From a virus, in the IMG/VR virus record IMGVR_UViG_3300042397_001782, positions 55,981 to 119,980 of that record: DNA of 64,000 nucleotides; one strand, given 5' to 3'. Below, piece after piece: positions 8,275 to 58,642 of the stretch (the first letter of the stretch is position 1; the number at the start of each line of letters is the position of its first letter). The notes under the pieces are model-generated. The model ran no database searches. It saw only the letters and a list, made by a program, of their open reading frames with translations, and was not told the DNA's origin. Made by a program: the position numbers and the translations under genes.

Positions 8275-8286
8275 ATAATTTTCAAT

Positions 8287-8592: not shown

Positions 8593-8596
8593 TAAA

Positions 8597-8926: not shown

Positions 8927-8935
8927 ACTTTTATT

Positions 8936-10377: not shown

Positions 10378-10416
10378 ACAACACACACAAAACAATAATT
10401 TATAAAACTAAAAAGT

Positions 10417-24246: not shown

Positions 24247-24266
24247 CATAAAAAACAAATAAAAAT

Positions 24267-24599: not shown

Positions 24600-24619
24600 A
24601 AATAAATAAATAAAAATAC

Positions 24620-25801: not shown

Positions 25802-25839
25802 AATCTATAATAACTATAAAATTAAATAAAAATAAAAAC

Positions 25840-38334: not shown

Positions 38335-38338
38335 AATT

Positions 38339-38806: not shown

Positions 38807-38838
38807 ATTAAAACTACAAAAACTTAAAAAATAAAACT

Positions 38839-39099
38839 ATGAAATTTTTTAGAGAAATGTTTAGCGATGATAATTCAATTAATGAGAAATCTGTTATTGG
38901 ATTCCTGGCATTTATTATGATGTCCTTATTCGCAATTGTAGATATTGTTACAGGATATTTAGGAAAAGAGCTTGTTGTAAATGAATTTATATTCAATGCT
39001 TTTGAAGTGCTAGTGTTAGGTTCATTTGGTATTGCAGCTACAGAAAAAATTACAAGCATTATAAAATCTAATAAAAACGAAGAAAATGAGTCTGAGTAA
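38839..39099 (+). CDS. Second holin-like two-TM protein
   Basis: Two TM helices, charged C-terminus, overlaps the next lysin gene. Confidence 0.6.
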   Translation: MKFFREMFSDDNSINEKSVIGFLAFIMMSLFAIVDIVTGYLGKELVVNEFIFNAFEVLVLGSFGIAATEKITSIIKSNKNEENESE

Positions 39100-39697
39100 A
39101 TTACAAGAAAAAATTGGGGTAACTGCTGATGGAGCGTTTGGCCCTGGAACAATGAAAGCTGCTATGGCTTTTTATGGGTTTACACCTGAGAGAGCTGCAC
39201 ACTTTTTTGCACAAACAGCACATGAGTCTGGAAACTTTAAAGCGTTCTCTGAAAACTTAAACTATTCTGCTGACGGATTGGTAAAAATCTTTGGCAAATA
39301 CTTTACAGCGGCCACTGCCCCTAAGTATGCTAGAAACCCTGAAAAAATTGCTAACAAAGTTTATTCTTCTAGAATGGGCAATGGTGACGAAGCTTCAGGA
39401 GATGGCTGGAAATTTAGAGGAAGAGGGGCTCTTCAATTAACTGGTAAATCAAACTATCAAGCATTTTCAGATTATTTGAATAACCCTGATATTATGACTA
39501 ATCCTGACTTAGTTGCAGGTGAGCTTTCTTTTGAGTCTGCTAAATTCTTTTTTGATAAAAACAAACTTTGGGATATATGTGATAAAGGTGTAACCAAAGA
39601 AACTATTTTAGCCCTTACTAAAAGAATAAATGGGGGTACCCATGGTTTGGCTGATAGAGAAGAAAAAACCTTTAAATATTATACATACGTTAAATAA
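39086..39697 (+). CDS. GH19-family endolysin with N-terminal peptidoglycan-binding motif
   Basis: LQEKIGVTADGAFGPGT; FFAQTAHESG; FRGRGALQLTGKSNY; TKRINGGTHGL. Confidence 0.9.
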   Translation: MSLSKLQEKIGVTADGAFGPGTMKAAMAFYGFTPERAAHFFAQTAHESGNFKAFSENLNYSADGLVKIFGKYFTAATAPKYARNPEKIANKVYSSRMGNGDEASGDGWKFRGRGALQLTGKSNYQAFSDYLNNPDIMTNPDLVAGELSFESAKFFFDKNKLWDICDKGVTKETILALTKRINGGTHGLADREEKTFKYYTYVK

Positions 39698-42244: not shown

Positions 42245-42919
42245 ATGACAATAAGAGAAATTATAAGTGGATATAGGGTGCCTATAGACCATGGTCTTCC
42301 TTCAGATGACACAGATTTTCCTACAAAATATATCTATCACTTAATGAAGTTAGCTAGAGCTAAGTTATTATATGATAGATTAAATGACCCTAGGTTTAAT
42401 TATAATTTAGCTCTACAAACTTTAGAATGTGTGGAGCTACAATTAGCAGATACTAACGAATGTTGTGAAAAGCTTCCTTCAGGATGCAAATGGTTGAAAT
42501 CAAAAAACCCTATACCTGAAACTATCAATAACATGATTAACAAAGTGTATAATGATAGGGGAGACACTTACAATAGAATACTATCAGAGTCTTCCAATTC
42601 ATTTAAAAGATATTCTTTTATAGAAGAAAGTGATTTTAAATATTTGATTAAAAACAGCTATTTATTTGTACCAGATTTAGATAGCCCTCAATGGGTAAAA
42701 ATTGAAGGCTTATTTTATGATGACGAAGTAATTAAAGCTACATGTGGACCAGTGTGTGATTTATTAGATACAGAGTTTCCTTTAGATAGCAGATTGGTTA
42801 CAACTATGTACGCTATTATGAATGAAATGATACTGAAAGTATATCCTTTCTTTAAGAAGGATGTTACAAATGATGGTACAACTGACGATACTTTAAATAC
42901 TAATGCGAAGGGTAAGTAA
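42245..42919 (+). CDS. crAss-like tail/ring structural protein
   Basis: QTLECVEL...C...C..LKS..PIP, NSYLF, EFPLD motifs; synteny with IHF-like and tubular genes. Confidence 0.65.
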   Translation: MTIREIISGYRVPIDHGLPSDDTDFPTKYIYHLMKLARAKLLYDRLNDPRFNYNLALQTLECVELQLADTNECCEKLPSGCKWLKSKNPIPETINNMINKVYNDRGDTYNRILSESSNSFKRYSFIEESDFKYLIKNSYLFVPDLDSPQWVKIEGLFYDDEVIKATCGPVCDLLDTEFPLDSRLVTTMYAIMNEMILKVYPFFKKDVTNDGTTDDTLNTNAKGK

Positions 42920-43286
42920 TAAACCAAAATCTTTTTATTCTTTAACTAAGGCGGCAAAGGATAGCAAATTTGAGGACAAGCAACTCTATAAAAGAGTTGT
43001 AGAAGAAATATTTAAAGTTGCTGGTCAAAGACTTATATATAAAAATAGAGTAAATCTTCCTGGATTAGGGGCATTTTATTTAACTGCTTATAAATCTGAT
43101 AAGAAAATAGTAGATTTTGGAATGACAAAAAAATTAGGTAAAACTGTTTACTATACAAATTTTCATTCAAATAGAGTTAGATATAGAATATCTTGGGGAA
43201 AAAGTATAAGAACAAAGTATTATATTTTTAAACCATATAGATTTTTAAATAGAGAATTAGCTAAAAAAATAATAAACGATGATTAA
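42903..43286 (+). CDS. IHF/HU-like protein of the crAss tail module
   Basis: YKRVVEEIF...VNLPGLGAFYL; very basic; position before the tail tubular gene as in crAss-like phages. Confidence 0.7.
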   Translation: MRRVSNKPKSFYSLTKAAKDSKFEDKQLYKRVVEEIFKVAGQRLIYKNRVNLPGLGAFYLTAYKSDKKIVDFGMTKKLGKTVYYTNFHSNRVRYRISWGKSIRTKYYIFKPYRFLNRELAKKIINDD

Positions 43287-44229
43287 TATAGAATTAGTAC
43301 CTATAAGCACTGTAATTGAAAACTGGAAACAAATTGCGGTATCAGAATTAAACTTTAACGAAGATCTACTCACTGAGTGGATTTTAGATGCTTATAACGA
43401 CATTGGAACCTATAAGCAATATAAAGAAAGAGTGCAGAAGCTTAAAGTAAGAAATTACAAAGCACAGCTTCCTTGTGGGTTTAGACAGTCTTTATATGTA
43501 TTGGCACAGCCTATACGACCTCAAGAAGAAGCTTTTTTCTTGACAGAGTACATTAGACAGGAACCTGGTAATGAAAACTGTACATGGGAGTATAAAAGAG
43601 TTTGTAAATGCCCTGAAGATAAACATTGTAATTGTGAACAAAACTACATAGAAACTGCAGGATATTTATTTATCAATAATCTAGAACAAGCAAAAGGTTT
43701 CAAGTTTGCAACAGTACAAGATTTTACACAATGGTTCACTACAAACCCAAGAAGATGGATAGTATTACAACCTCAAAAAAATGAGGTGTCCCTTTTAAAT
43801 TATAGAGAATTAGGCATTAAGCTACATCCTTCACACTTTTTTACTATAGATAATGGGTACATTATAACAGACTTTAAAGAGGCTGATTTATTAATTGGAT
43901 ATTTGGGAATACCAATTGGGGAAGATGGTCTTCCATTAGTTCCAAATATGGGAAGTTATACAAATGCTTTAATTGCTGCGTTAGAAAGAAAGTTTGCTTA
44001 TATACAATATAGAAAGAGCAGAAGCAATGCTGATTTAAACTTTTTCCAACTATCTGATAGAGAATATTCAAAATGGAAAGTTAAAGCGAGAGAGGACATG
44101 AATGCTCAGACATTTGAAGAAATGTGGGCTATGGGAGAAGCCACAAATCAGTTTTTGGTTCCTAACGAATATCATGGTTTAGATCAAAGAAAATCTCAGA
44201 AAATAAATAACGGATTTACAAGATATTAA
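43279..44229 (+). CDS. Tail tubular/ring protein (P22 gp4-like)
   Basis: VRNYKAQLPCGF, IDNGYIITDFKE, GEDGLPLVP motifs; synteny. Confidence 0.7.
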   Translation: MINIELVPISTVIENWKQIAVSELNFNEDLLTEWILDAYNDIGTYKQYKERVQKLKVRNYKAQLPCGFRQSLYVLAQPIRPQEEAFFLTEYIRQEPGNENCTWEYKRVCKCPEDKHCNCEQNYIETAGYLFINNLEQAKGFKFATVQDFTQWFTTNPRRWIVLQPQKNEVSLLNYRELGIKLHPSHFFTIDNGYIITDFKEADLLIGYLGIPIGEDGLPLVPNMGSYTNALIAALERKFAYIQYRKSRSNADLNFFQLSDREYSKWKVKAREDMNAQTFEEMWAMGEATNQFLVPNEYHGLDQRKSQKINNGFTRY

Positions 44230-44240: not shown

Positions 44241-47200
44241 ATGGCAGAGCAAAATAATAATAAAACAAGAAGTTTACAAGATATAAAAAACTATACCTTC
44301 ACCAAAGGTATGAATGATGACGCTTCTCCAGAAGCACAGCCTGCAGATACCTACAGAGCCGCTTTAAACATGGTGAAAGAATCCTCTGAAGGAGATGAGA
44401 ATTTTCTCACCACAGAATATTCTAATGCATTTAGAATCAAGTTGCCTGGAAAAGTTTTACATTCTAACTTGATTAAGCAATTAAATCAAGTTGTAGTCTT
44501 CTTGCACACAAATGAAATAGGATTATATGACCCTAATTTAAATACTTATACTAAGTTATATGCTTCTCCTGGTTTAAATTTTTCAATATATATAGATTCT
44601 GTATCTTTTACAAAAACAGAATGTGAAGATGTTGTATTAATTTTTTGGGACTCAGTAAATAGAGTGCGAAATATTAATATATCTAAATTTATAAAAGAAG
44701 GGCCTGGTGATGGTCCTGTTGAGGAATTAGAGTTATTTAAAACTGCAGACACTTGTATTAATTTAAGTGATGTAAGTTTTATAGAAAATGCTGCTTATAA
44801 TGTAGACGCAGGAGTTTATAGACCTTTTATTCAATATGAAGATGAGGATGGTAATACTACTAATTATTATATAATAAATGAAAATATACCTTTAATAGAA
44901 GATGGTACAAATGGTACCTATGAGTACATTGATGGGAATGAGTCTAAAATTTTAAATAAAAGTATTGTACTAAAATTTGATAATGTAGACACTAAATATC
45001 CTTTTATTAACGTAGGGTTTATAAAAACAGTTAATGGAGTGCCCACTGCTTTTATTTTTAAAAGAAAGCAACCTACAAATATTTTTTCTACAGTAACGTA
45101 TGAAGGAGATACTACTTTTATTCAAACTGTAGATATTGCAGAAGTTCTAACTAAAAGAGCTTTTTATTTATCTGCAAAAACAGGTTTAATTTATAATAAT
45201 AGTTTACTATTAGGAGGATTAAAAGGTAAAAGAAATGTTGATTATCAACAATATGCAAATAAAATTTCTGTAAAATATGTAACAGGAAGAATTAATTTAA
45301 GTAGAACAAAGGGATATAAAAATCCTGAACATATTATTCACCATAAGTCTTGGATGAGGGATGAAAATTATATGTTAGGTATTGTATTAGAGTTTGAAGA
45401 TATGTCAGAATCTGCTGCATTTCCTTTAATAAATAAACAATATACTCCTTTTCCTGAATTTACAGGTTCGGGAGGTCCTAGACCTGAGACAAATGATACA
45501 AAATTATGTTGTACAGATGATAGAGTTTATTGGAAAGAAGTTAATACAGCAAAAAGAACTGCATATAATCATTTTGCAGGAGACCTTAGTGTAACAGATT
45601 TTTGTTCAGGAACTATAGATAATAATTCTAACAATATTAGATCTGAGGGTTATTTAGGTTATTTTGAATCAGAAGAAAAATATCCTGTTATATTAAGATG
45701 TGGAGCTTCTCCAGGGTCATTAGATGTTAATGATTATATGTATCCTGTAGATACTAGCACTGGAAAAGCAATAGGAAAAAATATTACATTATTTAAAATG
45801 CCAGACTCTACTATTGAGCCTTTCCACAATAATATAATAGATGATTTTGCTATTGAAGATAATAAAAATAGATTTGATAGTAAATATGATAATTTAGAAA
45901 TTTATCCTTTAGGTTTAAAACTAGAGAATATAGAGTTTCCTACACTAGAAGAAACAGATGGGGTAAAAGTTACAGGATATAGAATTGTATATGTAAGGAG
46001 AGACACTTTTAATAAGTCAGTACAAGATAAAGGTTGGTTTGTTGAGATGTTTAAAAATAATCTTAATGGCACAGATTATATTTATCCTAAACATAATGTT
46101 AATTCTGGAGCTAAGTGGGATTATTTTTCAAATCTTAGAGATAGAACTATTGAAAGCTCTAGCCCTATACAAGATTTTGTAAGAAACTGTGGATATGGAA
46201 AACACTATGATAATGGTATAATATTTTATGGGGGTAATACATTATTTTCTCAACTAGGAGTTAATGTTAATCATGTTAAAATAGAGCAACAATATAATAC
46301 AACAGGTTATTATATAGATTCTGTTAGAGGTCAAAATTCTGATAGGTTTAGTACTATAGGAGATAATACTTATGACCCTTCTACATTTTTAGATAAAGAT
46401 GGTAGATTTAGATCTGCTTCAATACAAATTTATAATTTATATAATTATGGATATGACCAAAAGTCGGATGGAACTTTAGATAGAAGTAGAGGCTATTTTA
46501 ATAGAACAGAAGTTATTTATCAATTTAAAAATATTTGTACAGATAACTATTCTTATGTAAATGATAATGTCATTCTTAATAAAATTTTAAACTCAGATTT
46601 TTCTTTAGTTAATTTTTACAGAGAAAGTGGGTTTTATTTAGATTTTAATAACCCTACAGACTTATCATTTAATAAAAATTATAGAGAGTTTAATAATCAA
46701 ACTTTTACAGTAGCGAGTACTACTACAGTAACTATACCTCTTAATACTTTTTTATCTCCAGGGCAAATTGTAACAATATCTAATTTAGGGGGTTGTAATA
46801 CTACTTCTGTATTTGGCCCAGTAGGTAGACAATTTACTGTTATTAATGGTACAACATTACAAGTAATAGGAACTCCTTTTACTTTGGCTCAAGTTGGTTT
46901 AAGTTGTAATACTATTGACTATGATGTAAGTACTTCTAGACAATATTTTAATTCAGATTCTAGTGCAAAAAAATGTAATTGTACTACTTTATTTGATAAT
47001 ATTGTAGAAAATATAATTGGTGGAATAGGGGTAAGATTGTTGACAGCAACTTCAACATCTGATATATTAGTACCTATTCCTCCCGCTACATCTTTTCCTA
47101 CAACAATAACTGATTATCCTAACGGAACAATATTTACTATTAATGCAGTGTCTCCTCCTACTGTTCCTTTTTTAGCTGGAGATAAATATAAATGGAATAG

Positions 47201-49532
47201 TACATTAAATCAATTAGAAAAACAAAGTCCTTATTATAGTCCAATACCTTCTCCTCTTCCTATAGATACTACTTTAGATTTTGAAGCAGATACATGGGTA
47301 AACCAAACTTTTACAGTCCCTGCTGGACTTGGAAAAATAATTAATTATGCTAACTCTTTACCTACAGGTTCTCAAATAACTATTATAAATAGTCCAGGAT
47401 CACCATTGGCAAATGGGCAATCTTTTATTGTAAGTAGTACTACTCAAATAACTTATACAGGATTTTTTAATTTAGATGGGGGCAGTTCAGGAGTAACACT
47501 ATCAAATGTTTCTATTAGAGTTAATTTAATGCCTGGAAATAGCGATCAATATTTTTTAGAAAATTATTTAGATAATGCTACTTCTACAAATATTTTAAAT
47601 GATTGTAATACAGGGTATATTTACTATGGTTCCATAAAAAATAACTTACCTAGACAATATGGAAGTATTGATGATATGTTTTTTATTGATACAGGGTTGA
47701 AAGGATGTGCTGGTCAAAACAGTTTGATAGGATTTTATGGAGATAGTTATATTAATACTTTTTCTTTTGTAAGAACAGGTGTTACAGGAATGTTAGAAGA
47801 TTCTATTATAGATGATAATAGTGCTACATTTGCAGATAAATTTGACCCTAAATATACTATAAATAATATAATAGGGGCAAGCAATAGGTCTTATTTATTA
47901 AATTTATACTTAGCTCAAAAAGCAAATATAACTTTATTAAACACTGTTACAGAGTCTGATGTAAACTTAGATTTAAGATATGAAGGGCCTACTTTTAATG
48001 AAGTGTATTATCCTAAATTAGCTAATGGTAAATATAAATTATTTTCCACTAGAAAAATTGAATATGCAGAAGACTGTTATTTAAATACTTATTTTTATGA
48101 ACTATTTTGCAATAATAAAAATGATAATTGTACAACTAGTGCGACTGAATTCATAGAATATAATGATGCCTATAGAAATTTCCATGATAATAAAATAAAC
48201 TTAAATAATGATTATAATGAATTAAATGGTATGAGATTTAATCTTATTAAACCAATTAATTCTACATATAAAACTTGTGAGTGTGATACTGAATTTGACA
48301 ATAGAATTGCAATTTCTTCTAAAGATAATCAATCTATTAGTCAATTAAATTATAGTAAATTTTTACCAAATGATTTTATTACACTACCTCATAAAGAAGG
48401 AAAGATAACTAATTTATTTAAAGAAAACCAAGTACTTTATGCACATACCACAGATAATGTTTGGAAATTACTTACATTAGAGTCTAGGCTTCAAGCGGAT
48501 AATAATCAAGTATATTTAGGAACTAATAATTTATTATCCAGTCAATCTCTAGAATTATTTGCTTCTAATGAAGGATATATGGGATTACAAGATAAAAGAT
48601 TTTCATTCCAAAATAATACTGGATATTTCTTTGCAGACTTAAAAACCCAAACATTAAATCTAATGTCAGGGGGAAGGTTAGATGCTATTTCTACTTATGG
48701 TATGAACAGCTTCTTTAAAAACCAATGGAATACATACTTTAATTCTTATGGGGCTTCTACAAACTCTAATTTGCCTATTATACCTCAATCAAACCCAGAT
48801 TTGTCCACAGTGGAGATTTATTTTGGATATGATTATAGACATAAAAGACTTCTTCTAACGGATAAAACAAACGGATTTACCCTTAGTTATTACCCAGAAG
48901 ATAAGGCATTTTATTCTTTCCATTCGTATCTACCAATGGCGTATCTTCAGAATAGAGACACTTTCTTTACTCAGAATGATAATTATGACGTTTATATACA
49001 TCAAGATAACTTTAATTCTTATAGAAAATTCTATGGTGTTAATTACCCTTCTTTAATTGACGGAGTATTTACCTATCATCCATTAGTATACACAACACTT
49101 AATAATGTTGGTATGAAAATAGATGCCTATAAAAATGTTAACGGTCAGCTATTGATTACCAATGAAGTACCTACAAGTTTACAGGTTTGGACTAGCAGAC
49201 AACATAGTGGGGAAGTTTTCTTAAAAACTCCTATTAACGCTGATTACATGGAGAATGTTGTATTAAATAATCAATTTCACAACATAATAAATGGGGTTGT
49301 ATATTGTAACAACTTGGCTAACTATGTGTTAGACGATACTATTAATTTTTTGAATGGGGATATTTTTCCAGTTCCTAATGCCAATGTAAGTTTTTCTAAG
49401 GATTGGACCCAAGTAGATAGGCTTGAGAATAATTTCTTTAACTATCGAATCAGTATAGATAACAAAGATTTAGAAAATTTAAAATTTATACTTAAATTTA
49501 CAGTTCTTAATTACAATATATCCATGCGTTAA
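44241..49532 (+). CDS. Tail stabilization/muzzle protein (P22 gp10-like)
   Basis: 1763 aa; FTKGMNDD...YRAALNM N-terminus; KSWMRDENY; FTLSY...FYSFHSYLP C-terminus. Confidence 0.78.
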   Translation: MAEQNNNKTRSLQDIKNYTFTKGMNDDASPEAQPADTYRAALNMVKESSEGDENFLTTEYSNAFRIKLPGKVLHSNLIKQLNQVVVFLHTNEIGLYDPNLNTYTKLYASPGLNFSIYIDSVSFTKTECEDVVLIFWDSVNRVRNINISKFIKEGPGDGPVEELELFKTADTCINLSDVSFIENAAYNVDAGVYRPFIQYEDEDGNTTNYYIINENIPLIEDGTNGTYEYIDGNESKILNKSIVLKFDNVDTKYPFINVGFIKTVNGVPTAFIFKRKQPTNIFSTVTYEGDTTFIQTVDIAEVLTKRAFYLSAKTGLIYNNSLLLGGLKGKRNVDYQQYANKISVKYVTGRINLSRTKGYKNPEHIIHHKSWMRDENYMLGIVLEFEDMSESAAFPLINKQYTPFPEFTGSGGPRPETNDTKLCCTDDRVYWKEVNTAKRTAYNHFAGDLSVTDFCSGTIDNNSNNIRSEGYLGYFESEEKYPVILRCGASPGSLDVNDYMYPVDTSTGKAIGKNITLFKMPDSTIEPFHNNIIDDFAIEDNKNRFDSKYDNLEIYPLGLKLENIEFPTLEETDGVKVTGYRIVYVRRDTFNKSVQDKGWFVEMFKNNLNGTDYIYPKHNVNSGAKWDYFSNLRDRTIESSSPIQDFVRNCGYGKHYDNGIIFYGGNTLFSQLGVNVNHVKIEQQYNTTGYYIDSVRGQNSDRFSTIGDNTYDPSTFLDKDGRFRSASIQIYNLYNYGYDQKSDGTLDRSRGYFNRTEVIYQFKNICTDNYSYVNDNVILNKILNSDFSLVNFYRESGFYLDFNNPTDLSFNKNYREFNNQTFTVASTTTVTIPLNTFLSPGQIVTISNLGGCNTTSVFGPVGRQFTVINGTTLQVIGTPFTLAQVGLSCNTIDYDVSTSRQYFNSDSSAKKCNCTTLFDNIVENIIGGIGVRLLTATSTSDILVPIPPATSFPTTITDYPNGTIFTINAVSPPTVPFLAGDKYKWNSTLNQLEKQSPYYSPIPSPLPIDTTLDFEADTWVNQTFTVPAGLGKIINYANSLPTGSQITIINSPGSPLANGQSFIVSSTTQITYTGFFNLDGGSSGVTLSNVSIRVNLMPGNSDQYFLENYLDNATSTNILNDCNTGYIYYGSIKNNLPRQYGSIDDMFFIDTGLKGCAGQNSLIGFYGDSYINTFSFVRTGVTGMLEDSIIDDNSATFADKFDPKYTINNIIGASNRSYLLNLYLAQKANITLLNTVTESDVNLDLRYEGPTFNEVYYPKLANGKYKLFSTRKIEYAEDCYLNTYFYELFCNNKNDNCTTSATEFIEYNDAYRNFHDNKINLNNDYNELNGMRFNLIKPINSTYKTCECDTEFDNRIAISSKDNQSISQLNYSKFLPNDFITLPHKEGKITNLFKENQVLYAHTTDNVWKLLTLESRLQADNNQVYLGTNNLLSSQSLELFASNEGYMGLQDKRFSFQNNTGYFFADLKTQTLNLMSGGRLDAISTYGMNSFFKNQWNTYFNSYGASTNSNLPIIPQSNPDLSTVEIYFGYDYRHKRLLLTDKTNGFTLSYYPEDKAFYSFHSYLPMAYLQNRDTFFTQNDNYDVYIHQDNFNSYRKFYGVNYPSLIDGVFTYHPLVYTTLNNVGMKIDAYKNVNGQLLITNEVPTSLQVWTSRQHSGEVFLKTPINADYMENVVLNNQFHNIINGVVYCNNLANYVLDDTINFLNGDIFPVPNANVSFSKDWTQVDRLENNFFNYRISIDNKDLENLKFILKFTVLNYNISMR

Positions 49533-52500
49533 TGGCTAAAGGTAAAAATAAACTTAATAAACCTAATTCTTCAGGGTGGTTGGATAACTACTCTGAGGAA
49601 TTTTCTATTAGTAAATATGCTGATGGAGATAGAGTTATTGACCCTTTACTTTCTCCTGGACAGCTAGCTCAACTAAATAAATTAAAAGAATTATCAAAAA
49701 AACTTCCAAAAGATGAAGAAATTCTTTTAAAACAAATGCAAAATAAAAGAGCTCAAGATAAATTATCTGTTTCAAAAGAAAAAACTACTGCTGATAAATT
49801 AAAAAAGCTTGTTAGAGAGCCTGTTACTACATTAGCAGACCAAGCTGAATATAATAATTTTGATTTATTATTTGGTACTCCAGGAAGAGTAGGTACAGGT
49901 ATATATAGTACTGTTGGTAATTTATTAACTCCTTCTACTTATCCTACATTAGGAAAAGGTGCGGTTAATTTAGTTAGTAATGCTTTAGCAGATAAAAATG
50001 TTTATGAGGGAGTTAATGAAGATGCTAGTAAAATATTAGGAGAAGGGTTAGATATTTTAGATATAATAGATATGGGAGTGGCTTTAAAGTCTTTGCCTTA
50101 TTTAAATAAATATATACCTAACTCTAAACAACTATCTGGTTCTAGTATAACTTCTTCTGTAGAGGATGTTGGTAAAGGTTTTAAATCAGAAATAGATAAT
50201 ATTAGTTCTGATATTTTAAAACTAAGGGAGGAAAAAACCCTTTATGAAAATAATTATAAAAACCTTATTAGTAGATATAAAAATAAAGAAATAACTCCTG
50301 AACAATATAAGATAGAGTACCAAAAAATATTACCAAAAGATGTGTATTTATTAGGGGATTTAGAGAAAAAAGTAAGAGAATTGCGAGTAAGACAAGATAT
50401 TTTTAACACTCCACAAAAAAATATATTAAACTCTAAAAACCAATTAGGTAAAAATATATCCGATGGTGGGTCAAATAATAAAGGTGTTTTTGAAATTGGC
50501 GATAAGTATGTAGCAAAACTATCAGCACATGGATATGATGATGCAAGTAGATTGGTGAATTACGCTGATAAAATTAAGTCTTCAAGAATAATGAAAACAC
50601 ATCAAGTTAAAGATATAGATGGAAAAGTTTATTTAGTTCAAGATAAAGCAAAAGGCACTCCTTATACTAAATTATCAGAAAAAGACTTAAAAACTATTCC
50701 CAAAAATCAAATAGATAATTTTTATAATGATATTGCAGAATTAGAAAAAAATGGTTTAAATATAGATATTAGTGGGAATAAATCAAATATATTTTATGAC
50801 CCTAAAAAAGGATTTCAGTTTATAGATTTAGGAATAGGTAAAATGCCAGATATTGAAGATATAAATAAATTAGTTATTAAAAAACAAGATGGGGGAGAAA
50901 TAAATCAATATGAAGATGGTGGCAAATTAAAACAATATTTTAAACTTCCAACCAAACGTGTTGCTGTGGATAACACTTATAATAAGAATAGTCCAATAGG
51001 CAACAGTTCTGATGATAAGGAAATGGTTAACAGGTTGTTAATAGAAAAAGTCAACAACGCCCGAAAGGCTAAAGAAAATGAAGATGCAAAAAAATATGTA
51101 GAAAAAGACTTTAAAGAATCTGTAGATTTCTTTGAGAATTATTATAATTCTCCTAGATACAAAGAAATGTTAAAAAATTCTACAAATCTAGAAGATGTAT
51201 ATAATGAACAAAGAATAGATAATCTTAGAACTACTGCTGCATTTAGTAAAAATAATGATGAAGGAAATCCAAATAGTTTTGGATATTCTAATAGTTATTC
51301 AGGAGATATTTCTATTTTACCTGCGGGTAGGGGAGATAAATATACAATGACACATGAACTAAGTCATTCTTCTGATAGACCCTATATTTCTTCATTACCT
51401 AATGAATTATTTAAAGATTTAGGGTTAAAAACTAGATTTAATCCTACAAAATCTGTTTTAAAAAACGTATTAAATATTGGAACTACTAAAAATAGAGTAA
51501 TACCCTATTTAGATGAAATGAGAATTTTAGATAACCAAAAAAAGTTTGATTCAAAATTTCATTTAAATAAAAATAATATTAATGAAGAAAACTTTAATTC
51601 TTTTTATAGAAATTATGTAGGAGAGCCTACTGAAGTAAGAGCAAGGTTAATGGAAATTAGAAGAGGGGGACTAGACAATAATATTTATAATCCTTTTAAA
51701 GAAAAGGTTACTCCTGAAAATTATAAAAAATTAAAAGATTACTTTTATAAAAAAGATGACATAGATAGTCCAATTTTTGATTTAGAACAGTTATACGATG
51801 AAAATAAAGTTATAAAGTTTTTAAATGAAATTTCTGAAAACAAAGAGGAAGACACAGTTCCAATGGCTAAAAATGGAGGAGAAATAAACCAATATGAAGA
51901 TGGGGGCAAATTAAAACAATATTTTAAACTCCCAACCAAACGTGTTGCTGTAGATAACACTTATAATAAGAATAGTTTAAAATTAGACAGTTCTGATGAT
52001 AAGGAAATGGTTAACAGGTTATTAAGAGAAAAAGCCAATGAATCCCAAAAGGCTAAAGAAAAAAGGATAGCTGATGTAAGAAGGCTAGAAGAGTTAAATC
52101 AGAAATCTATGTTAGAAACTGCAAATGCAAAAGATTTGTATGACATAGGAGAAGGGATGAAAAGTAAATATAGATTTTCAAATGAAGACAACTTCTTTGA
52201 TGACTATATTAACCCACTTAATATGGTAGGGGGAATGGCTGGAGGATTAGCTCAAACTCCAGAATTAATTAACCAAGGAGAGTATTTAAATGCAGCATTA
52301 AATGTAGGATTACCTTTAACCGTTGGGGCTTTAGCAGGTATTGGCACTCAAAATACAGGACAGTTTGTAAATAACTTAATTAATCCTTTAGCTGATGTAA
52401 GTGATAAACTTTTAAAAAAACAATCAGTACAAAAATTTTTAAAAACCCCTCGTTTTGATTTAGGTCGTAAAGAGTTTTTACCAGAATCTTTATCTTTTGA

Positions 52501-54586
52501 TTATCAAGATTTAGGTGATGAAAATTTTGCTGTTTTATTAAAAGACCCTAATAATAAAATCCAAGCAAATCTTTCTTTATTTAAAGAAGATGAAGATTGG
52601 TATAAGCCTAGAATGATTACAGTAAAAGAAATTCTTCAAGGACATAAAATACAAGATATTTTATATCAAAAAGGTATTGAAGAAGTTAGAAAAAAAGGCT
52701 TAAAAGGTATTAGAAGTGGGGATTATTTAATGGAACCAGAAAAAACTATAAAAGCTCAAAATAGATTTATTAAAGAAAATTTACTGCCTGATGCTAGTAC
52801 ACAAAATAAAAATTTACCTATAGTAGGATTATTAAACCATAAAAATCCAAATTTATATGAAGATTTTTTTGCATATTATGCTACTATACCTAAAGAAATA
52901 AAATATAAACATTCTATAAAAGAATTGTATGATAGTTTTAAAAATATACTACCAGGTAATAAATCTACAAAAGCTTTAGAGTATTTAAATGGTGGTACCA
53001 TAAATAACAATATGAAAAATAAAAAAACTAAAAAATATCCTGCAGGAGGTTATCTTAATTATCAAGAAGGATATAAAGGATTCGGTATGGGTCCTGAATT
53101 ATATCAAGATAATTCATACTTTAGATCAGTAATGCCTGACAATATTGAAGATATGGAAGAAATGATTAATAAACCAAGCGTATTTTCAGGAATTAATGAT
53201 GTATTAGGTTCTGTAAATCAAGGAGTTAATCAAGTTACTGGGTTAATGAGTAAATTTCAAAATCCACAAACAGGTATGACTAATACAGGTATGATTAATC
53301 CTGAACAAGCTTTTATGCAAAATTATCAAAGTACTCCAGGAAAAAAAATAGATATTAACGATCCTGCTAACCTTACAGATTTTGAAGATTTTGATATGTC
53401 AAATCTTTGGTCAGATTATTTTAATCCTTCAAAATCATCTAATCCTTTTCCCTCAAATTTATTAAATTCAGTTGCACCTCCAGCTAAAAATGGAGGTTAT
53501 TTAAAAAAATACCAAGATGGAGGAGAAATGGATATGTTGCCTGTGGGTGCCCCAGAATATATTCATAAAAGCAATGTATTTAATGAACAGTATAATCCTG
53601 TACCGAGAGTACATTTTAGTGATGATACTACTGCTTATGATATGGGAGTAAATCTAAATGATTTAGTAAATATGAACGGAGGTAGAATAAGACAATATGC
53701 AGGAGGTGGTTTTGCAGAAATGTATGGTAATAGTTATGGCGGGGCATCTAGTTCTCCTAGATTATTTAATGCAAATACAGGTAGAGCAACTTTAGGAGAA
53801 TTACAAGCTGCTACTCAAAATGATTTTTTAAATACAAAAGTAAGAAATGATAGACAACAGTTTGTAGATGATAAAGTAGATTGGGGTGCATTTAACTTTT
53901 TAAAACAACCTGCAGGATTTGTATTAGGTAGATTAAGTGAAGTACCGATTGTAGGAAATATTACTAAAAGTGCTTTAGGAGATTCTTTTTTAACAAGAAC
54001 AAAAGGTTACACAGTAGGGTCTGGTGTAGGAAAAACTATTACGGGGGTTGGAAAAATTGCTGGAGGTATAGCTACAGGTAATGTTGGTATGGTAGGTAGT
54101 GGTATTGGAGATGTAGGTTCAGGAGTTGGAAGTACTTATGGTAATTTAGCTGCTAGAGATGCTATGTCAGATTATAATAAATCAGGCTATGTTTCAAATA
54201 AAAGACTTGAAAAAGCTTCCCAAGATTTTGGTAATATGATGGATACTGCTTCAGGGTTATTTGGTAACATAAAAGGAGGAGTAGGTATGGCTAAAAATAT
54301 GGGGGGAATGGAAGGAATGTTTGGAAATATGAAAGGAGGCCAAACAGGTATGAAAGGATTTGGTAATTTTATGGGTAATTTGACAGGATTTAGAAACGAA
54401 GATGGAGGCATGTTAGATTATGAATATACTATGGTTCCTGAGTTTAAAAAAGGAGGACTTACTCCTAGTAAAGCAGAGAAAATGTTACACGATAAAAGTT
54501 TTACTACTGATAAACAAAGAAAATACTTTGGTTATATAGCTTCACAAAATAAAAAAACTGAGGGTGGTTGGTTAGACTCTCTATAA
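49532..54586 (+). CDS. Modular polyvalent putative cargo protein: kinase-like, zincin (HELSH), GNAT-like and Gly-rich membrane segment, delimited by GG motifs
   Basis: Motifs described in findings; lies directly after the stabilization gene, where crAss-like cargo genes sit. Confidence 0.75.
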   Translation: MAKGKNKLNKPNSSGWLDNYSEEFSISKYADGDRVIDPLLSPGQLAQLNKLKELSKKLPKDEEILLKQMQNKRAQDKLSVSKEKTTADKLKKLVREPVTTLADQAEYNNFDLLFGTPGRVGTGIYSTVGNLLTPSTYPTLGKGAVNLVSNALADKNVYEGVNEDASKILGEGLDILDIIDMGVALKSLPYLNKYIPNSKQLSGSSITSSVEDVGKGFKSEIDNISSDILKLREEKTLYENNYKNLISRYKNKEITPEQYKIEYQKILPKDVYLLGDLEKKVRELRVRQDIFNTPQKNILNSKNQLGKNISDGGSNNKGVFEIGDKYVAKLSAHGYDDASRLVNYADKIKSSRIMKTHQVKDIDGKVYLVQDKAKGTPYTKLSEKDLKTIPKNQIDNFYNDIAELEKNGLNIDISGNKSNIFYDPKKGFQFIDLGIGKMPDIEDINKLVIKKQDGGEINQYEDGGKLKQYFKLPTKRVAVDNTYNKNSPIGNSSDDKEMVNRLLIEKVNNARKAKENEDAKKYVEKDFKESVDFFENYYNSPRYKEMLKNSTNLEDVYNEQRIDNLRTTAAFSKNNDEGNPNSFGYSNSYSGDISILPAGRGDKYTMTHELSHSSDRPYISSLPNELFKDLGLKTRFNPTKSVLKNVLNIGTTKNRVIPYLDEMRILDNQKKFDSKFHLNKNNINEENFNSFYRNYVGEPTEVRARLMEIRRGGLDNNIYNPFKEKVTPENYKKLKDYFYKKDDIDSPIFDLEQLYDENKVIKFLNEISENKEEDTVPMAKNGGEINQYEDGGKLKQYFKLPTKRVAVDNTYNKNSLKLDSSDDKEMVNRLLREKANESQKAKEKRIADVRRLEELNQKSMLETANAKDLYDIGEGMKSKYRFSNEDNFFDDYINPLNMVGGMAGGLAQTPELINQGEYLNAALNVGLPLTVGALAGIGTQNTGQFVNNLINPLADVSDKLLKKQSVQKFLKTPRFDLGRKEFLPESLSFDYQDLGDENFAVLLKDPNNKIQANLSLFKEDEDWYKPRMITVKEILQGHKIQDILYQKGIEEVRKKGLKGIRSGDYLMEPEKTIKAQNRFIKENLLPDASTQNKNLPIVGLLNHKNPNLYEDFFAYYATIPKEIKYKHSIKELYDSFKNILPGNKSTKALEYLNGGTINNNMKNKKTKKYPAGGYLNYQEGYKGFGMGPELYQDNSYFRSVMPDNIEDMEEMINKPSVFSGINDVLGSVNQGVNQVTGLMSKFQNPQTGMTNTGMINPEQAFMQNYQSTPGKKIDINDPANLTDFEDFDMSNLWSDYFNPSKSSNPFPSNLLNSVAPPAKNGGYLKKYQDGGEMDMLPVGAPEYIHKSNVFNEQYNPVPRVHFSDDTTAYDMGVNLNDLVNMNGGRIRQYAGGGFAEMYGNSYGGASSSPRLFNANTGRATLGELQAATQNDFLNTKVRNDRQQFVDDKVDWGAFNFLKQPAGFVLGRLSEVPIVGNITKSALGDSFLTRTKGYTVGSGVGKTITGVGKIAGGIATGNVGMVGSGIGDVGSGVGSTYGNLAARDAMSDYNKSGYVSNKRLEKASQDFGNMMDTASGLFGNIKGGVGMAKNMGGMEGMFGNMKGGQTGMKGFGNFMGNLTGFRNEDGGMLDYEYTMVPEFKKGGLTPSKAEKMLHDKSFTTDKQRKYFGYIASQNKKTEGGWLDSL
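50889..52062 (+). repeat. 190-bp intragenic direct repeat (50889-51078 and 51873-52062)
   Basis: Both copies encode GGEINQYEDGGKLKQYFKLPTKRVAVDNTYNKNS...SSDDKEMVNRLL; offset 984 bp, in frame. Confidence 0.9.
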
Positions 54587-54597
54587 AAAATAACAAT

Positions 54598-57204
54598 ATG
54601 AAAGAATTATTATTAAAACTTGCTAAAGTTAAAAATGAGAAGGAATTCTATAAAAAGTATCCTACTCAAGAAGCATTCTTTAAGGCACATCCTGAAGCAA
54701 AAGAAATTATTGCTCAGTATCAGCAAGAAATGATGGCAAATTCCCAAGAAGAAATGCAAGGTAATCCTGAAGCATCTATGGAAAAAATGGCACAAGGAGG
54801 TTTGATAAGAAGAGCAGATGGCTCTTACTCTCAAAGAGGGTTATGGGATAACATAAGAGCTAACAAGGGTTCAGGTAAAAAACCTACAAAAGAAATGTTA
54901 GAGCAAGCTAAGAAAATCCAAGCAGAAGAAATGATGTATGGAGGAATGATAGATGAATACGGAAATGGAGGTTACACTGTAAGAAGAAGTAATGATAGAA
55001 AAGGTAAAACACACGTTGTTACTGGCCCTGATGGTACTAAAAAATATTTCGGGGATCCTAATATGGGTGAAAGAAGTAAATCTAAGCATGGTAAAGAAGC
55101 TTTTTATGCGAGACATAAAACAAATTTAAAAAATAACCCTTATTTTAGAGCTTATGCAAGATCAACTTGGGAAGATGGAGGAATTCTTCCTGATATGCAA
55201 CAATTAATGTTAGCAGGACAAGACATGTATAATATGGGAGGATATGTAGAATATCCTACAATGTACCCTGGAGGGGGAATGATAGCAGGTCCTATGATGG
55301 GGTATGTAGATAATTTTAACTATGCTATGGGAGGAAGAATGTATGAGCAAGGCGGCATGATAAATAGCATGACACAAGGTATTCCTGTACAGACAGAAAC
55401 ATTTGAAGGACAGGCAGAACAAGTTGCTTTGCCTGATGGTACAATTAAGTCAGTAGATGCTACTACTACTCATGAAAATATGTCAGACGGAGAAGTAACA
55501 GATGTTTTACCAGGAGGTTCGCATATTCAAAGTGCTCGTAATAAACTTACTACTGATCAGTATGCACAGTTAATGCAAATGTTTAATCCTGAGAGTGCCG
55601 AACAAGATATTAAAAAATTATCACAAGTATATCAAAATAAATATGGTAAGAAGAATGGTAAAAAACTTTCTCCTGCTGATATTTCAGAATACGCTAAAAA
55701 TAAATACCAAACAAAATCTACTCCAAATGCATTTGATACTGATAAATTAAAAGAAGGAAATAAAAAAGCCTACTTGGAATTGAGTATGCAAATGAATGAT
55801 TTGATAAAGTCAGGAAAAGAAATTGCTGAAGGTAAAATGCCTGAACAAACACCAATGATGGCTTGGGGAGGAAATGTAAATAAATATGTTGGTGGAGGAG
55901 AAATTGATACTTTTTTAAGCCAATTATTAACCCCAGAAACCACTAATCTAATTAAAAACACTACTTTTGATGAAAGTAGAGGAAAATATAGATTAAATAT
56001 GGAGCCTAATATGAGTTTGCAGGAAAAAATGGGTTTAGCTGATGCTGCGGAAAGATTTGGTATCAATAATTTAGTACAAGGAAGAAATAAAGATTTTCCT
56101 AATTTTGTAGGGGGATTTACTCCACAAGATTTTGAAAAAAGAATTGTATATGCTAATGAAGGACCTAAAGGTTTAGAGAATAAATCAGATCTTGAAATAA
56201 GAAAAAAAGCTTTAAACTTAATGGGATACAAAGGTAATCTAAGTGATACTCAATTAAGTGATGTAAAGTCTTTATATAATGATCCTAGATTTAAAGAAAT
56301 CTATTCAAGTTTTACCAATTACCTTCCTTCTGATAAATTTAGAAAAACAAGAGGTAATGATTTTATGATGGGTGCTGAACATTTTGATGCTTTAGGAAAT
56401 TATGTAGAACCTCAGCCAATAACGGCTACACCAGCAATAATTGCTCAAACTCCTGGAGAAAAAGTTGCTGGCCCACAATTAGGTGCAACAACTCCTGTGT
56501 CACCAGCGGCCAGAATTCCTATGCAAAATAGATTTAACTTTGGATTACTTGAAGGTCAATTAGGTAGAGGTTTACAAGGTAATCAAGCTTACTTAAATGC
56601 AGCTATGAGTTTATCTCCTGTTTATACAATGGAAACACCTGATACTTTTATTAGAAGCAGAAGAAATGAAATTCCTATAGGAAATATATTATATAATATT
56701 GAAAGAGCACAAAGAAACTCTGCTAATGCTTTAGCAAATCAAACAGGAGATTGGAGCACATTGGCAGGTAATATTGCTAATGCTGGAGCACAAGCTTATA
56801 ATCAAATAGGAGATACTTTAAGTGCTCTAAATGAGAAAAATCTAGGGTTATATAATACAACTCAAGACTTACAACAAAATCTATTGAGCTCTAATGTAGG
56901 GGTAAGAAATCAAAATCTTACCAACATGCAAAATATGATGAATTATAAAAGGAACTTATCTGGACAAAAAGCTGTTAAAGATGCAGAACTATATTCTAAA
57001 TATGTAAAATCTATGTCTGAAAATTCTCAAGAAGAACAAAATCAAAAACTAGCAATGTTAAATATTATGGCTTCTAAACCAGATATGTTTAAAGGAGAAC
57101 AAGGACAAAGATTTGCAAATCAGATTATGGGTAATTACGGATCTTATAATAATCCTTTTGCAGGATCAGTATTAGATTTTGGATTAAGTAATTTATTTAA
57201 ATAA
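54598..57204 (+). CDS. Second GG-punctuated putative cargo protein
   Basis: ATG 54598 preferred; EFYKKYPTQEAF N-terminus; many [MYW]xxGG motifs; Q/N-rich helical C-terminus. Confidence 0.8.
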   Translation: MKELLLKLAKVKNEKEFYKKYPTQEAFFKAHPEAKEIIAQYQQEMMANSQEEMQGNPEASMEKMAQGGLIRRADGSYSQRGLWDNIRANKGSGKKPTKEMLEQAKKIQAEEMMYGGMIDEYGNGGYTVRRSNDRKGKTHVVTGPDGTKKYFGDPNMGERSKSKHGKEAFYARHKTNLKNNPYFRAYARSTWEDGGILPDMQQLMLAGQDMYNMGGYVEYPTMYPGGGMIAGPMMGYVDNFNYAMGGRMYEQGGMINSMTQGIPVQTETFEGQAEQVALPDGTIKSVDATTTHENMSDGEVTDVLPGGSHIQSARNKLTTDQYAQLMQMFNPESAEQDIKKLSQVYQNKYGKKNGKKLSPADISEYAKNKYQTKSTPNAFDTDKLKEGNKKAYLELSMQMNDLIKSGKEIAEGKMPEQTPMMAWGGNVNKYVGGGEIDTFLSQLLTPETTNLIKNTTFDESRGKYRLNMEPNMSLQEKMGLADAAERFGINNLVQGRNKDFPNFVGGFTPQDFEKRIVYANEGPKGLENKSDLEIRKKALNLMGYKGNLSDTQLSDVKSLYNDPRFKEIYSSFTNYLPSDKFRKTRGNDFMMGAEHFDALGNYVEPQPITATPAIIAQTPGEKVAGPQLGATTPVSPAARIPMQNRFNFGLLEGQLGRGLQGNQAYLNAAMSLSPVYTMETPDTFIRSRRNEIPIGNILYNIERAQRNSANALANQTGDWSTLAGNIANAGAQAYNQIGDTLSALNEKNLGLYNTTQDLQQNLLSSNVGVRNQNLTNMQNMMNYKRNLSGQKAVKDAELYSKYVKSMSENSQEEQNQKLAMLNIMASKPDMFKGEQGQRFANQIMGNYGSYNNPFAGSVLDFGLSNLFK

Positions 57205-57219
57205 TTAAATTAATAATTA

Positions 57220-58629
57220 ATGAGTCAAAGAAGAAACCAAGCAGGTATGTTTCCTGGAGCTTTTGGAGGGTTTTCTAGAATTGGAGAACAAGAGATGTAT
57301 GACCCTACTTGGGCCAATATAGATTTTGCAGATTTTAAAGGATTAGATATGAATCTAATAAATGAAAATGCTAAATTTTCTCAAGAAGTAGCAAACGATA
57401 GGTTAAAAGATATTTTAAAGCAAAGAGATGCTATTTTAGATAAAGTAAAATTACATAAAAGATATAGTGATTTACAAGGACAATTGGATAATAAGCTAGG
57501 ATCTATTATAGATAATATGGGTAATGTTCAATTATCTGATGCTGCAAATTACACTGCGTTAAATACTAATTTAATTAAAACTAAAAATGACCCTGTTTTA
57601 CAAAATGCTGTAAAAGTTTCAGAAGAGGCTATGGCTTATGAAAAATATAAATCAGAACACCCTGAAATTGCAGATCAAGCTTGGAATAATGGAGGATTAG
57701 AAAACAATAATGAAATTAATTTTCAAAGATTTTTGAGAGGAGAAACAAATGATTTTCAGTTCAATCCAGTATATAAAGAATACGATTTACAGGCTAAAGC
57801 AGATGCTTTTGCTAAAGATCTTCCTGCTGAAGAGAGAAACTCTATAGAGAAGTATGGAGTATATGGATTGCAAGAAAAAGCAGTAGAAGATAAATCAGTT
57901 GCAAGAGTTCAACAAGCTTTTGAAGGATTTAAACAAGGTTTGATGCAAGATCCTGAATTTCTATCTTGGTATAATAGAAGAGGTAAATATGAGCAAAATA
58001 GAGGAGGAAGTATTGATGACGTAATTAATAATATGTTTAAATCTTCTGCTGCTAGATATGGTACATCTACACCAAATATTAAAGTAAGTATGCCTAGAGA
58101 AAACCCTGATATTGGAACGAGAATACAAATTGCTGAAAATGCTAGAGCTCAGGGAAGATATGATGCAGAGGTAGAAGAAGGTACTTTAGGTGGAGGAAGG
58201 GGTAACAATTCTGCTACAGGGCAACCTTATGTAAATTATAATGATAGTACTTTTAATCCTGTAGGTAATGAAACCACTTTAATTCAGGCAGATAAAATAA
58301 ATACATTAAAAAATTTATTAAACAAATCTCAACAAACAGGAAGCGAGGGGGCTAAACCTATTTTATTATCAGATCCTAATAAAGATAATATAGTTAGAGA
58401 TAAGAAAAAAGAAGCAATAAGATATACCTCAGAGTATCAGCCAACAGGTTATTTTACAAAAGGTAATAATAATAATGTTTTTGTAGAAGTAAAAGGAAAA
58501 GACGATAAAATATATTATGTTCAGTATGATCAAGGTACTTTTGAAAGAAATGTAGTAGGAGTTCCTGCTAATACTACTACTTCAACTAACACTAATACAG
58601 ATCCTTTAGGATTAGGAATAAAAAAATAA
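57220..58629 (+). CDS. Putative ejected/cargo protein (469 aa)
   Basis: Helical; cargo-gene context; ends TDPLGLG. Confidence 0.75.
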   Translation: MSQRRNQAGMFPGAFGGFSRIGEQEMYDPTWANIDFADFKGLDMNLINENAKFSQEVANDRLKDILKQRDAILDKVKLHKRYSDLQGQLDNKLGSIIDNMGNVQLSDAANYTALNTNLIKTKNDPVLQNAVKVSEEAMAYEKYKSEHPEIADQAWNNGGLENNNEINFQRFLRGETNDFQFNPVYKEYDLQAKADAFAKDLPAEERNSIEKYGVYGLQEKAVEDKSVARVQQAFEGFKQGLMQDPEFLSWYNRRGKYEQNRGGSIDDVINNMFKSSAARYGTSTPNIKVSMPRENPDIGTRIQIAENARAQGRYDAEVEEGTLGGGRGNNSATGQPYVNYNDSTFNPVGNETTLIQADKINTLKNLLNKSQQTGSEGAKPILLSDPNKDNIVRDKKKEAIRYTSEYQPTGYFTKGNNNNVFVEVKGKDDKIYYVQYDQGTFERNVVGVPANTTTSTNTNTDPLGLGIKK

Positions 58630-58642
58630 ATTAAATTTACAA

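Follow-up and report, generated by a model that had tools for sequence, protein, structure and literature searches.

The window analysed here is a stretch of 64,000 nucleotides (nt) from the IMG/VR virus record IMGVR_UViG_3300042397_001782 (positions 55,981 to 119,980), and it is part of the genome of a crAss-like phage. Two adjacent genes encode proteins of 1684 and 868 amino acids (aa) which, judged by gene order and composition, are probably virion cargo (ejection) proteins that are injected. In both proteins a short joint, an aromatic residue or methionine followed by two variable residues and a double glycine ([YFMW]xxGG), recurs between unrelated modules. We found that this joint is real and family-wide in crassvirus cargo proteins, and that the joints are sites of cassette insertion, deletion and duplication, even between two haplotypes of one assembly. 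What emerges is a grammar of cassettes that extends through the family of crassvirus cargo proteins.

The open reading frames (ORFs) and all of the GG motifs listed in a sequence-only reading of this DNA were present as described. The 1684-aa protein has 22 GG runs and the 868-aa protein has 12. Expected motif counts were obtained from 2000 composition-preserving shuffles. The 1684-aa protein contains 7 [YFMW]xxGG motifs against 1.61±1.26 expected (3 of 2000 shuffles as high), and the 868-aa protein contains 11 against 1.10±1.06 (0 of 2000). For both proteins together the counts are 18 and 2.67±1.61, respectively (0 of 2000), while plain GG occurs 37 times against 21.1±4.2 expected (2 of 2000). 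Chance or composition as the origin of the motif was ruled out by these shuffles. The remaining 48 window ORFs of at least 100 aa hold 9 [YFMW]xxGG motifs altogether, 4 of them in one protein with 21% Gly. Counting backwards with the last G of GG as the first residue, we denote the fifth as P5. The four cargo ORFs of the whole 119,980-nt record (two haplotype copies each) have 67 GG sites, and P5 is Y/F/M/W at 38 of them, compared with 13 of 143 sites in 96 other ORFs (odds ratio 13, Fisher p = 3.5e-13). The enrichment for which the sequence-only reading proposed a test was found.

A family set of 2535 distinct GG contexts from 202 relatives gave the same preference. Y/F/W/M occupies P5 in 53% of contexts vs. 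a background of 12%; Y/F/W accounts for 40% (background 9.2%), Met for 13% (3.2%), and Leu/Ile/Val for 5% (15.6%). A/K/Q/E are preferred at P4, where hydrophobic residues are depleted (15% vs. 28% background), N/D/E at P3 and Y/E/M at P1', and P2' is Leu/Ile/Val in 38%. The pairing of motifs is also real, with spacings of 9, 8 and 7 residues among the commonest in relatives (79, 46 and 32 cases, respectively, of 1404 motif-to-motif spacings). In 72 independent viral contigs, P5 is Y/F/M/W at 648 of 1169 GG sites in module-bearing ORFs vs. 473 of 2108 in 808 other ORFs; these contigs were fetched with one module, and the comparison set still contains neighbouring cargo genes and shadow frames. 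Some GG sites are no joints: in the 868-aa protein, KYVGGG, NFVGG and VLPGG lack conservation among orthologues. A codon-level signal, with GGAGGA as a Shine-Dalgarno-like pause or a recombination site, was rejected as not general because GGA use differs between the two proteins: GGA encodes 16 of 21 motif glycines in the 868-aa protein (other Gly 25 of 62) and 5 of 14 in the 1684-aa protein (other Gly 58 of 136).

The modules of the 868-aa protein show how closely the joint is tied to module borders. Nine conserved joints lie within its aa 1-440. A search with the whole protein found 1290 representative proteins at E≤0.001. In most of the 150 listed, the match is limited to aa 45-260 (39-82% identity) and lies at any position in proteins of 133-2409 aa. 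This region consists of two basic modules, A and B. Module B ends in TWxxGG in 40 of 40 relatives listed, and its invariant columns include the flanking GG. GG directly precedes module A in 39 of 40 relatives listed. Downstream of the module, GG comes after no more than a few residues in 35 of 40, and three of the other relatives have their protein end there.

Cassette turnover at the joints was seen in several comparisons. First, the 1684-aa protein has 52 homologues at E≤0.001, which form three groups. In 36 of them the 35-residue leader and/or the last ~540 residues are common and the middles differ; 8 giants match only around aa 102-459, and another 8 match only parts of aa 519-968. The homology breakpoints at aa 435-459, 457, 785 and 1128-1169 adjoin the joints at aa 451-464, 779-792 and 1151-1173. 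The variable slot of the homologues is filled by lysozyme-like, ART-PolyVal, DUF5872 and several different HExxH modules, each closed by xxGG, and Pfam confirmed ART-PolyVal, DUF5872 and Phage_lysozyme2. Second, when six orthologues of the 868-aa protein were aligned with MAFFT, whole cassettes proved to be absent, single or doubled, always between conserved xxGG joints. Third, the two haplotypes differ by a 105-nt in-frame cassette with Met/aromatic-Gly-Gly codons on both flanks. Module-bearing ORFs in the 72 loci range from 318 to 2852 aa. The gain and loss of modules as GG-bounded units, which the sequence-only reading had anticipated, was positive in the homologue alignments as well as in the haplotype comparison, and a multi-effector cargo of GG-bounded units is supported.

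The 119,980-nt record contig exceeds one genome, whose unit length is about 108.8 kb. Its first ~11.7 kb (1-11705) are a diverged second version of the cargo block at window 52826-63650, with 68-95% nt identity by segment. The two versions on one contig look like co-existing haplotypes joined by the assembler. Their divergence is greatest in the cargo genes, where protein lengths of 913 and 868 aa go with the cassette indel.

The 1684-aa protein carries recognizable modules between its joints. AlphaFold2 (AF2) modelled aa 206-800 with a mean predicted local distance difference test (pLDDT) score of 58.2 and was confident at aa 212-435. The best Foldseek match of this part, and the sole one at E≤0.001, was the kinase OspG (4q5h_A; E=4.7e-4, TM score 0.54 on target), followed by Lck, PknB and CDK2. 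The model therefore predicts a kinase fold for the module at aa 206-452. Eight other giant proteins share this module, and their high-scoring segment pairs (HSPs; P0039-P0046) stop at aa 435-459. The next module is called zincin-like because it has HELSH at aa 608 and a helical core modelled with confidence (pLDDT about 90 at aa 705-735); its HSPs are to P0047-P0049, P0052, P0054 and P0017. The 193-nt direct repeat that brackets it codes for the twin joint and counts as a further sign of cassette turnover. In 8 of 9 homologues listed, the leader ends in [YH]xxGG at aa 29-33, where the 1684-aa protein has YADGD. Of the self-contained modules which the sequence-only reading named, the kinase fold, the HExxH zincin, the basic modules of 45-70 aa and the Gly-rich segment stood, while the GNAT-like module is a sub-threshold lead. 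The Gly-rich segment gave a sub-threshold Pfam match to the type III secretion translocon SctB (SctB2; E=0.0031, 18.4 bits vs. the 26.5 cut-off), a hint that it may be pore-forming.

Library searches gave little else. Pfam and PHROGs on the whole 1684-aa and 868-aa proteins found 0 families. The GNAT-like and zincin-like modules had no Pfam match, and ten sub-regions searched at E≤10 gave sub-threshold noise. A phmmer search of both proteins against PDB sequences found nothing below E=0.46, and when the 868-aa model was compared with PDB structures by Foldseek, 0 matches reached E≤0.001. As tblastn of both proteins against 50,697 cultured-phage records found no match, none of these cultured phages holds them.

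Most joints lie outside predicted folds. The AF2 model of the 868-aa protein (mean pLDDT 59.9) has confident islands at aa 1-53, 126-192, 310-372 and 382-416 and in long C-terminal helices. Ten of its 12 GG sites are in segments with pLDDT below 50, one adjoins such a segment, and the non-conserved VLPGG is in a 50-70 block. Both twin joints in the modelled part of the 1684-aa protein are in low-pLDDT stretches. Two GG sites do fall within predicted folds, ISDGG (aa 309-313) in the glycine loop of the kinase and IRRGG (aa 709-713) in a zincin-module helix predicted with confidence, and both lack an aromatic residue at P5.

The assignment of these proteins to the virion is inferred from synteny with the cargo genes of PhicrAss001 and from the near absence of Cys. 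The 1684-aa and 868-aa genes are downstream of the genes for ring protein 1 and a muzzle-like protein and upstream of the polymerase-block giants. By gene-order comparison, this is the position of the cargo proteins gp45 and gp46 and the polymerase-block giants in PhicrAss001 (NC_049977). Cys is found at 0 of 2552 residues in the two proteins, and in the 72 related loci there are 1.4 Cys per 1000 residues in module-bearing ORFs vs. 8.8 in other ORFs. Among the presumed ejected proteins Cys counts are 0/1684, 0/868, 0/469 and 0/1786, with 1 each in two giants of ~2170 aa. The muzzle-like ORF is in the position of gp44, the PhicrAss001 muzzle, although BLASTP to gp44 gave only E=0.017; a muzzle homologue is found within 10 kb of the module-bearing ORF in 41 of the 72 loci.

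We tentatively favor the reading that the joints are uncut hinge and swap joints, a plausible account in which we place limited confidence. The two proteins are chains of portable cassettes, which comprise a minimal kinase, a zincin, perhaps an acetyltransferase, basic modules of 45-70 residues, small acidic modules and a Gly-rich membrane-type segment. Each cassette is closed by [Y/F/W/M]-x-x-G-G with a hydrophobic residue next at +1/+2, and many joints come as doublets with a spacing of 7-9 residues. In the favored reading the chain would stay in one piece, with the double glycine serving as hinge and helix stop, and the cassettes would unfold and refold separately while the chain threads through portal and tail. 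A shared joint would keep recombinant proteins in frame, from which cassette turnover would follow. A precedent for one chain may be found in PhicrAss001, where gp45 aa 214-245 are placed in the tail barrel and aa 425-552 on the portal, and one channel-spanning chain is proposed (Bayfield et al., 2023; PMC10172136). As described there, the gp45 model starts at residue 425 and would include the AFGG-W junction uncut.

Several points weigh against hinge and swap joints. The preference at P5 for aromatic residues and Met over Leu/Ile/Val is unexplained by a hinge; aliphatics are three-fold depleted at P5 (5% vs. 15.6%), and a plain hinge needs neither this nor the preferences at P4, P3, P1' and P2'. 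These site-specific preferences suggest that something reads the joint, a protease or a partner. Proteases classically recognise sites of this kind, in which an invariant GG is preceded by a hydrophobic residue. Module B with both GG flanks is the single module of ten small proteins (78-160 aa), but nine of them come from contigs of 541-1962 nt, so that their completeness is doubtful and they may be fragments. Both AF2 models are poor overall, and Gly-rich stretches tend to low scores anyway. A predicted helix precedes no more than about 6 of 16 joints, and helix capping would thus account for the smaller part of them. The continuity of gp45 was, in the available text, inferred and not demonstrated (Bayfield et al., 2023; PMC10172136). 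Helix capping of the Schellman type, considered as an explanation of the joint in its own right, was downgraded to a partial contributor on the same count and on the depletion of aliphatics at P5.

Cleavage of the polyprotein is a rather unlikely alternative in our estimate. A protease, which could be the packaged zincin, an unrecognised phage enzyme or a host enzyme, would cut after GG, after assembly or injection, and free the effectors. The site is sequence-specific from P5 to P2' with an invariant GG, and more than a thousand protein clusters have it where unrelated modules meet. Twin sites, the leader ending in [YH]xxGG and the five-residue tail after the last GG resemble pro-peptide layouts. 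On the other hand, cuts at twin sites would give scraps of 7-9 residues, some sites have Pro at P1', and homologues without a zincin in the same protein keep the joints. HExxH is confined to two proteins, the 1684-aa protein and one of 749 aa from the polymerase block, which makes these the sole candidate phage proteases. The 749-aa protein (L002:15218-17467, outside the window, between polymerase-block giants) has HExxH at aa 319 and an ART-PolyVal domain (E=5.5e-10); just upstream of it is a GIY-YIG/NUMOD3 homing-endonuclease-like ORF (L002:14527-15228).

Protease searches did not find an enzyme of a known GG-cutting type. In the genome, rated 100% complete by CheckV, six-frame searches for Peptidase_C48, C5, C39, S78, OTU and S77 gave 0 matches at E≤1; for clan CE this covers C5 and C48, its other families not having been searched. 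Pfam on 66 proteins found the M15 endolysin as the only peptidase family, and PHROGs on 16 proteins found no peptidase. The ORF between the portal and capsid genes had no Pfam or PHROG match, and many other ORFs are likewise without any library match, so that a protease of unrecognised type may be among their products. The two cargo proteins cannot hold a cysteine protease because they contain no Cys. Among control genomes, Bacteroides thetaiotaomicron carries C48 and C39 peptidases; hosts therefore own GG-type enzymes. The joint itself also differs from known sites. Known GG-specific sites have a hydrophobic residue at P4, as in the adenain-type (M/I/L)-X-G-G, and the double-glycine leaders of C39 enzymes have hydrophobic residues at -4 and -7. 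With its aromatic residue or Met at P5 and its depletion of hydrophobics at P4, the joint is unlike adenain, papain-like protease (PLpro), ubiquitin-type and C39 sites. The kinship to the GG sites of adenovirus and African swine fever virus (ASFV), which the sequence-only reading had drawn, is accordingly not supported. Of its protease-processed multi-effector payload, the GG-bounded multi-effector cargo stood, but no GG-type or prohead protease was detected.

The published record bears on cleavage in both directions. Virions of PhicrAss001 gave gel bands from 15 to over 300 kDa, and the available text neither names gp45 nor reports processing (Shkoporov et al., 2018). The words "protease", "cleav" and "proteoly" are absent from the text of Bayfield et al. 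(2023; PMC10172136) as available. Self-processing by zincins was proposed for polyvalent proteins (Iyer et al., 2017; PMC5512222), and fused crassvirus polymerase-block proteins were called "likely cleaved", with a zincin domain noted (Drobysheva et al., 2020, preprint). As far as these sources go, the idea of cleaved crassvirus polyproteins or zincin processing is already in print and hence not new. For the joint motif we found no earlier description in the literature searched on crassvirus cargo, gp45, cleavage and polyproteins, which was covered largely by titles, abstract starts and passages; the novelty claimed in the sequence-only reading holds for the motif within that literature and not for cleavage. 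A specific form of the cleavage idea, doubtful in our view, is that crassviruses have their own cleavage grammar, [Y/F/W/M]-x-x-G-G|hydrophobic. It would be read by the packaged zincin or by a new-fold protease among the unannotated genes, and the enzymes and basic peptides of 45-70 residues would be freed.

An uncut docking motif appears improbable, although it would account for features which a hinge does not. The joint would be read by proteins of the capsid interior, portal or tail lumen, by a scaffold, or by a host periplasmic or cytoplasmic factor that ratchets the chain inward. The preference for aromatic residues and Met but not aliphatics, together with the regular recurrence, fits multivalent binding, and the PhicrAss001 cargo is described as held at several stations, namely the muzzle, ring proteins and portal (Bayfield et al., 2023). 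In that structure, as described, the ordered and bound parts are modules and not joints. Moreover, AF2 gives the joints no structure, and an invariant double glycine is unusual for a binding motif. A possible docking peptide is GWLD, which the 1684-aa protein has twice, in the leader (window 49574-49585) and in the C-terminal GGWLDSL (54566-54577), and which homologues conserve. In gp45, GGWL stands where the portal-bound segment begins, and WLDTL is close to the C-terminus.

It is very improbable that the joint has no function and is a by-product of Gly-rich composition (8.9% Gly in the 1684-aa protein, 9.6% in the 868-aa protein) or of repeated copying of one ancestral linker, although duplication of cassettes does copy their flanks along: the shuffles never reached the observed count, the joint is kept between modules without shared sequence and in relatives with otherwise diverged linkers, and position-specific preferences persist over the 2535 contexts.

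The closest known system is crassvirus cargo protein 1, gp45 of PhicrAss001. It has the same position after the ring protein 1 and muzzle genes, a basic MAK-type N-terminus, small basic modules, WLDxL near the C-terminus, and a Gly-rich predicted transmembrane region which resembles the Gly-rich segment of the 1684-aa protein. Its aromatic-GG joints SAYGG210/FAEGGG265 and NAFGG428/FAYGG563 bracket the two segments resolved by cryo-electron microscopy, and a further joint of this kind ends at residue 333. Enrichment of the strict motif, which is strong in the window proteins, is not significant in gp45 (3 vs. 1.3; 152 of 1000 shuffles as high), and this genome has two such proteins, the 1684-aa one with enzyme modules. 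BLASTP of the cargo proteins to gp45 was insignificant (E≥0.26), and a jackhmmer/hmmsearch profile that finds gp45 at 2e-38 had no match to either. The portal-binding crAss_CARG1 (PF25725) had no match in the whole proteins, their sub-regions or six frames at E≤1; it is present in 6 of the 31 longest relatives with module B and in the homologue P0039. By eye, gp45 aa 375-423 resembles an orthologue cassette, and aa 1327-1365 of the 1684-aa protein resemble gp45 aa 455-492 (BLAST E only 0.4-0.8). Membership in the gp45 family is therefore suggested by position and shared modules only.

Polyvalent proteins are similar in that many unrelated effector domains are joined in one phage polypeptide, whose delivery with DNA is presumed (Iyer et al., 2017; PMC5512222). 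The 1684-aa protein combines a predicted kinase fold and an HExxH module, with GNAT as a lead. A zincin (MPTase-like) and a distinct kinase are reported there for polyvalent proteins, the kinase for those of Bacteroidetes phages, which the kinase fold fits, and ART-PolyVal and lysozyme modules occur in homologues of the window protein. In contrast, no common junction motif is given in the available text of that paper, from which "glycine", "linker" and "crAss" are absent, whereas junction grammar is the main feature here.

The Gly-Gly-cut polyproteins of adenovirus and ASFV (pp220/pp62) share with the cargo proteins an invariant GG after a hydrophobic residue, at the borders of virion-internal components including small basic peptides. 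They differ in that the hydrophobic residue of the crassvirus joint is aromatic at P5 and not aliphatic at P4, and in that no C5/C48 protease was matched. The ejection proteins of T7, P22 and N4 and the internal proteins of T4 are likewise Cys-poor, stored in the head and ejected before the DNA. We know of no repeated junction motif in them. In some homologues of the 1684-aa protein, a lytic-transglycosylase-like module directly follows the leader; T7 gp16 has such a module as well. T4 internal proteins are trimmed at LxE by the prohead protease. Trimming of the T4/HK97 type differs from the present case, since Pfam S77/S78 had no match in this genome. A parallel between N4 and crassvirus cargo has been drawn in the part of PMC13434306 available.

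The features of the window are collected in the table below.

Table. Structural and cargo genes of the window and the modules and joints of the two cargo proteins (window positions)
Feature	Position	Strand	Basis or remark
Large terminase (TerL)	10849-13152		PHROGs
Portal, P22-type	13211-15721		Pfam
Major capsid protein, crassvirus	17018-18595		Pfam E=4.9e-65
Tail ring protein 2	42245-42919		Pfam
Tail ring protein 1	43279..44229	+	Pfam CrAss_Ring_1 E=1.1e-22; marks crassvirus tail/cargo block
Muzzle-like virion protein, 1763 aa, 20 Cys	44241..49532	+	phrog_15100 virion structural protein E=2.1e-39
Probable polyvalent cargo protein, 1684 aa, 0 Cys	49532..54586	+
Basic N-terminal leader, aa 1-35, with GWLD	49532..49636	+	Conserved in homologues
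Helical stalk and minimal protein-kinase-like module, aa 206-452	50147..50887	+	AF2, Foldseek
Twin joint KQDGG-EINQ-YEDGG, aa 451-464	50882..50923	+	Low-pLDDT stretch aa 436-522
Direct repeat copy 1, 193 nt: joint and KLKQYF... linker element	50886..51078	+	Repeat search
Zincin-like module, aa 520-784, HELSH aa 608-612	51089..51883	+	HExxH, AF2, HSPs
Direct repeat copy 2, including twin joint AKNGG-EINQ-YEDGG	51870..52062	+	89% identical to copy 1; spacing 984 nt
Possible GNAT-like module, aa 970-1150, lead only	52439..52981	+	Feature search: viral GNAT acetyltransferase clusters nearest named, score 0.89, below 0.9 line
Joints YLNGG and YPAGG, aa 1151-1173	52982..53050	+	Start of C-terminal region common to 36/52 homologues
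Twin joint AKNGG-YLKK-YQDGG, 53-aa acidic module, twin joint NMNGG-RIRQ-YAGGG	53483..53710	+
Gly-rich, glycine-zipper-like segment, aa 1405-1625; candidate membrane/pore element	53744..54406	+	Read from sequence
Joints NEDGG and FKKGG, 37-aa basic module, terminal TEGG-WLDSL	54395..54583	+
Probable second cargo protein, 868 aa from ATG, 0 Cys	54598..57204	+	Upstream TTG at 54568 possible (878 aa); ATG start more plausible
Joint MAQGG, basic module A (aa 69-116, pI 9.8), joint MMYGG	54787..54945	+
Joint YGNGG, basic module B (aa 126-195, pI 10.1), joint WEDGG	54958..55182	+	Most widespread module
Four-joint cluster YNMGG, YPGGG, YAMGG, YEQGG	55228..55356	+	Low pLDDT aa 193-296; orthologues with extra cassettes here
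Twin joint MAWGG-NVNK-YVGGG	55858..55899	+	First half conserved in orthologues, second half not
469-aa protein, cargo protein 2 position	57220..58629	+	By position; BLASTP to gp46 only E=0.014

An ORF longer than 1785 aa lies downstream of the 469-aa ORF, and an IHF/HU-like protein was also among the Pfam matches in the window. Likely fibre or adhesin genes are found at window 22864-27093 and 34684-35925; they encode a 460-aa protein with 21% Gly, two leucine-rich-repeat proteins and a collagen-repeat protein. A PhoH-like ATPase gene (27168-27836, E=6e-64) is in the middle of the structural gene block. A lysis cassette of holin, M15 peptidase and GH19-like hydrolase (37906-39697) is between the tail genes and the ring-protein genes. 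Outside the window are a cohesin-domain protein with a type IX secretion system (T9SS) C-terminal sorting signal (L003:17162-19081 (-)) and a C-type lectin protein with a dockerin-like segment (L003:13919-14908 (-)), which may form a secreted cohesin-dockerin pair. The protein with the T9SS sorting domain indicates that the host belongs to the Bacteroidota.

No phages of the human gut are more abundant than the Crassvirales, which are also common in other places. The loading, ejection and use of crassvirus cargo were described as unresolved as of 2026 in the available part of PMC13434306. The shared junction signal provides a simple sequence rule for parsing otherwise unannotatable cargo proteins into units, and cassette joints explain the extreme length variation of module-bearing ORFs. 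Should the joints be cut, a protease system of new specificity would serve crassviruses in maturation or activation, and gain or loss of GG cassettes would retune the host-takeover payload from strain to strain. If they are uncut, as in the hinge and swap reading, they would show how nature builds multi-domain proteins that can be threaded through a narrow channel and can exchange cassettes in frame.

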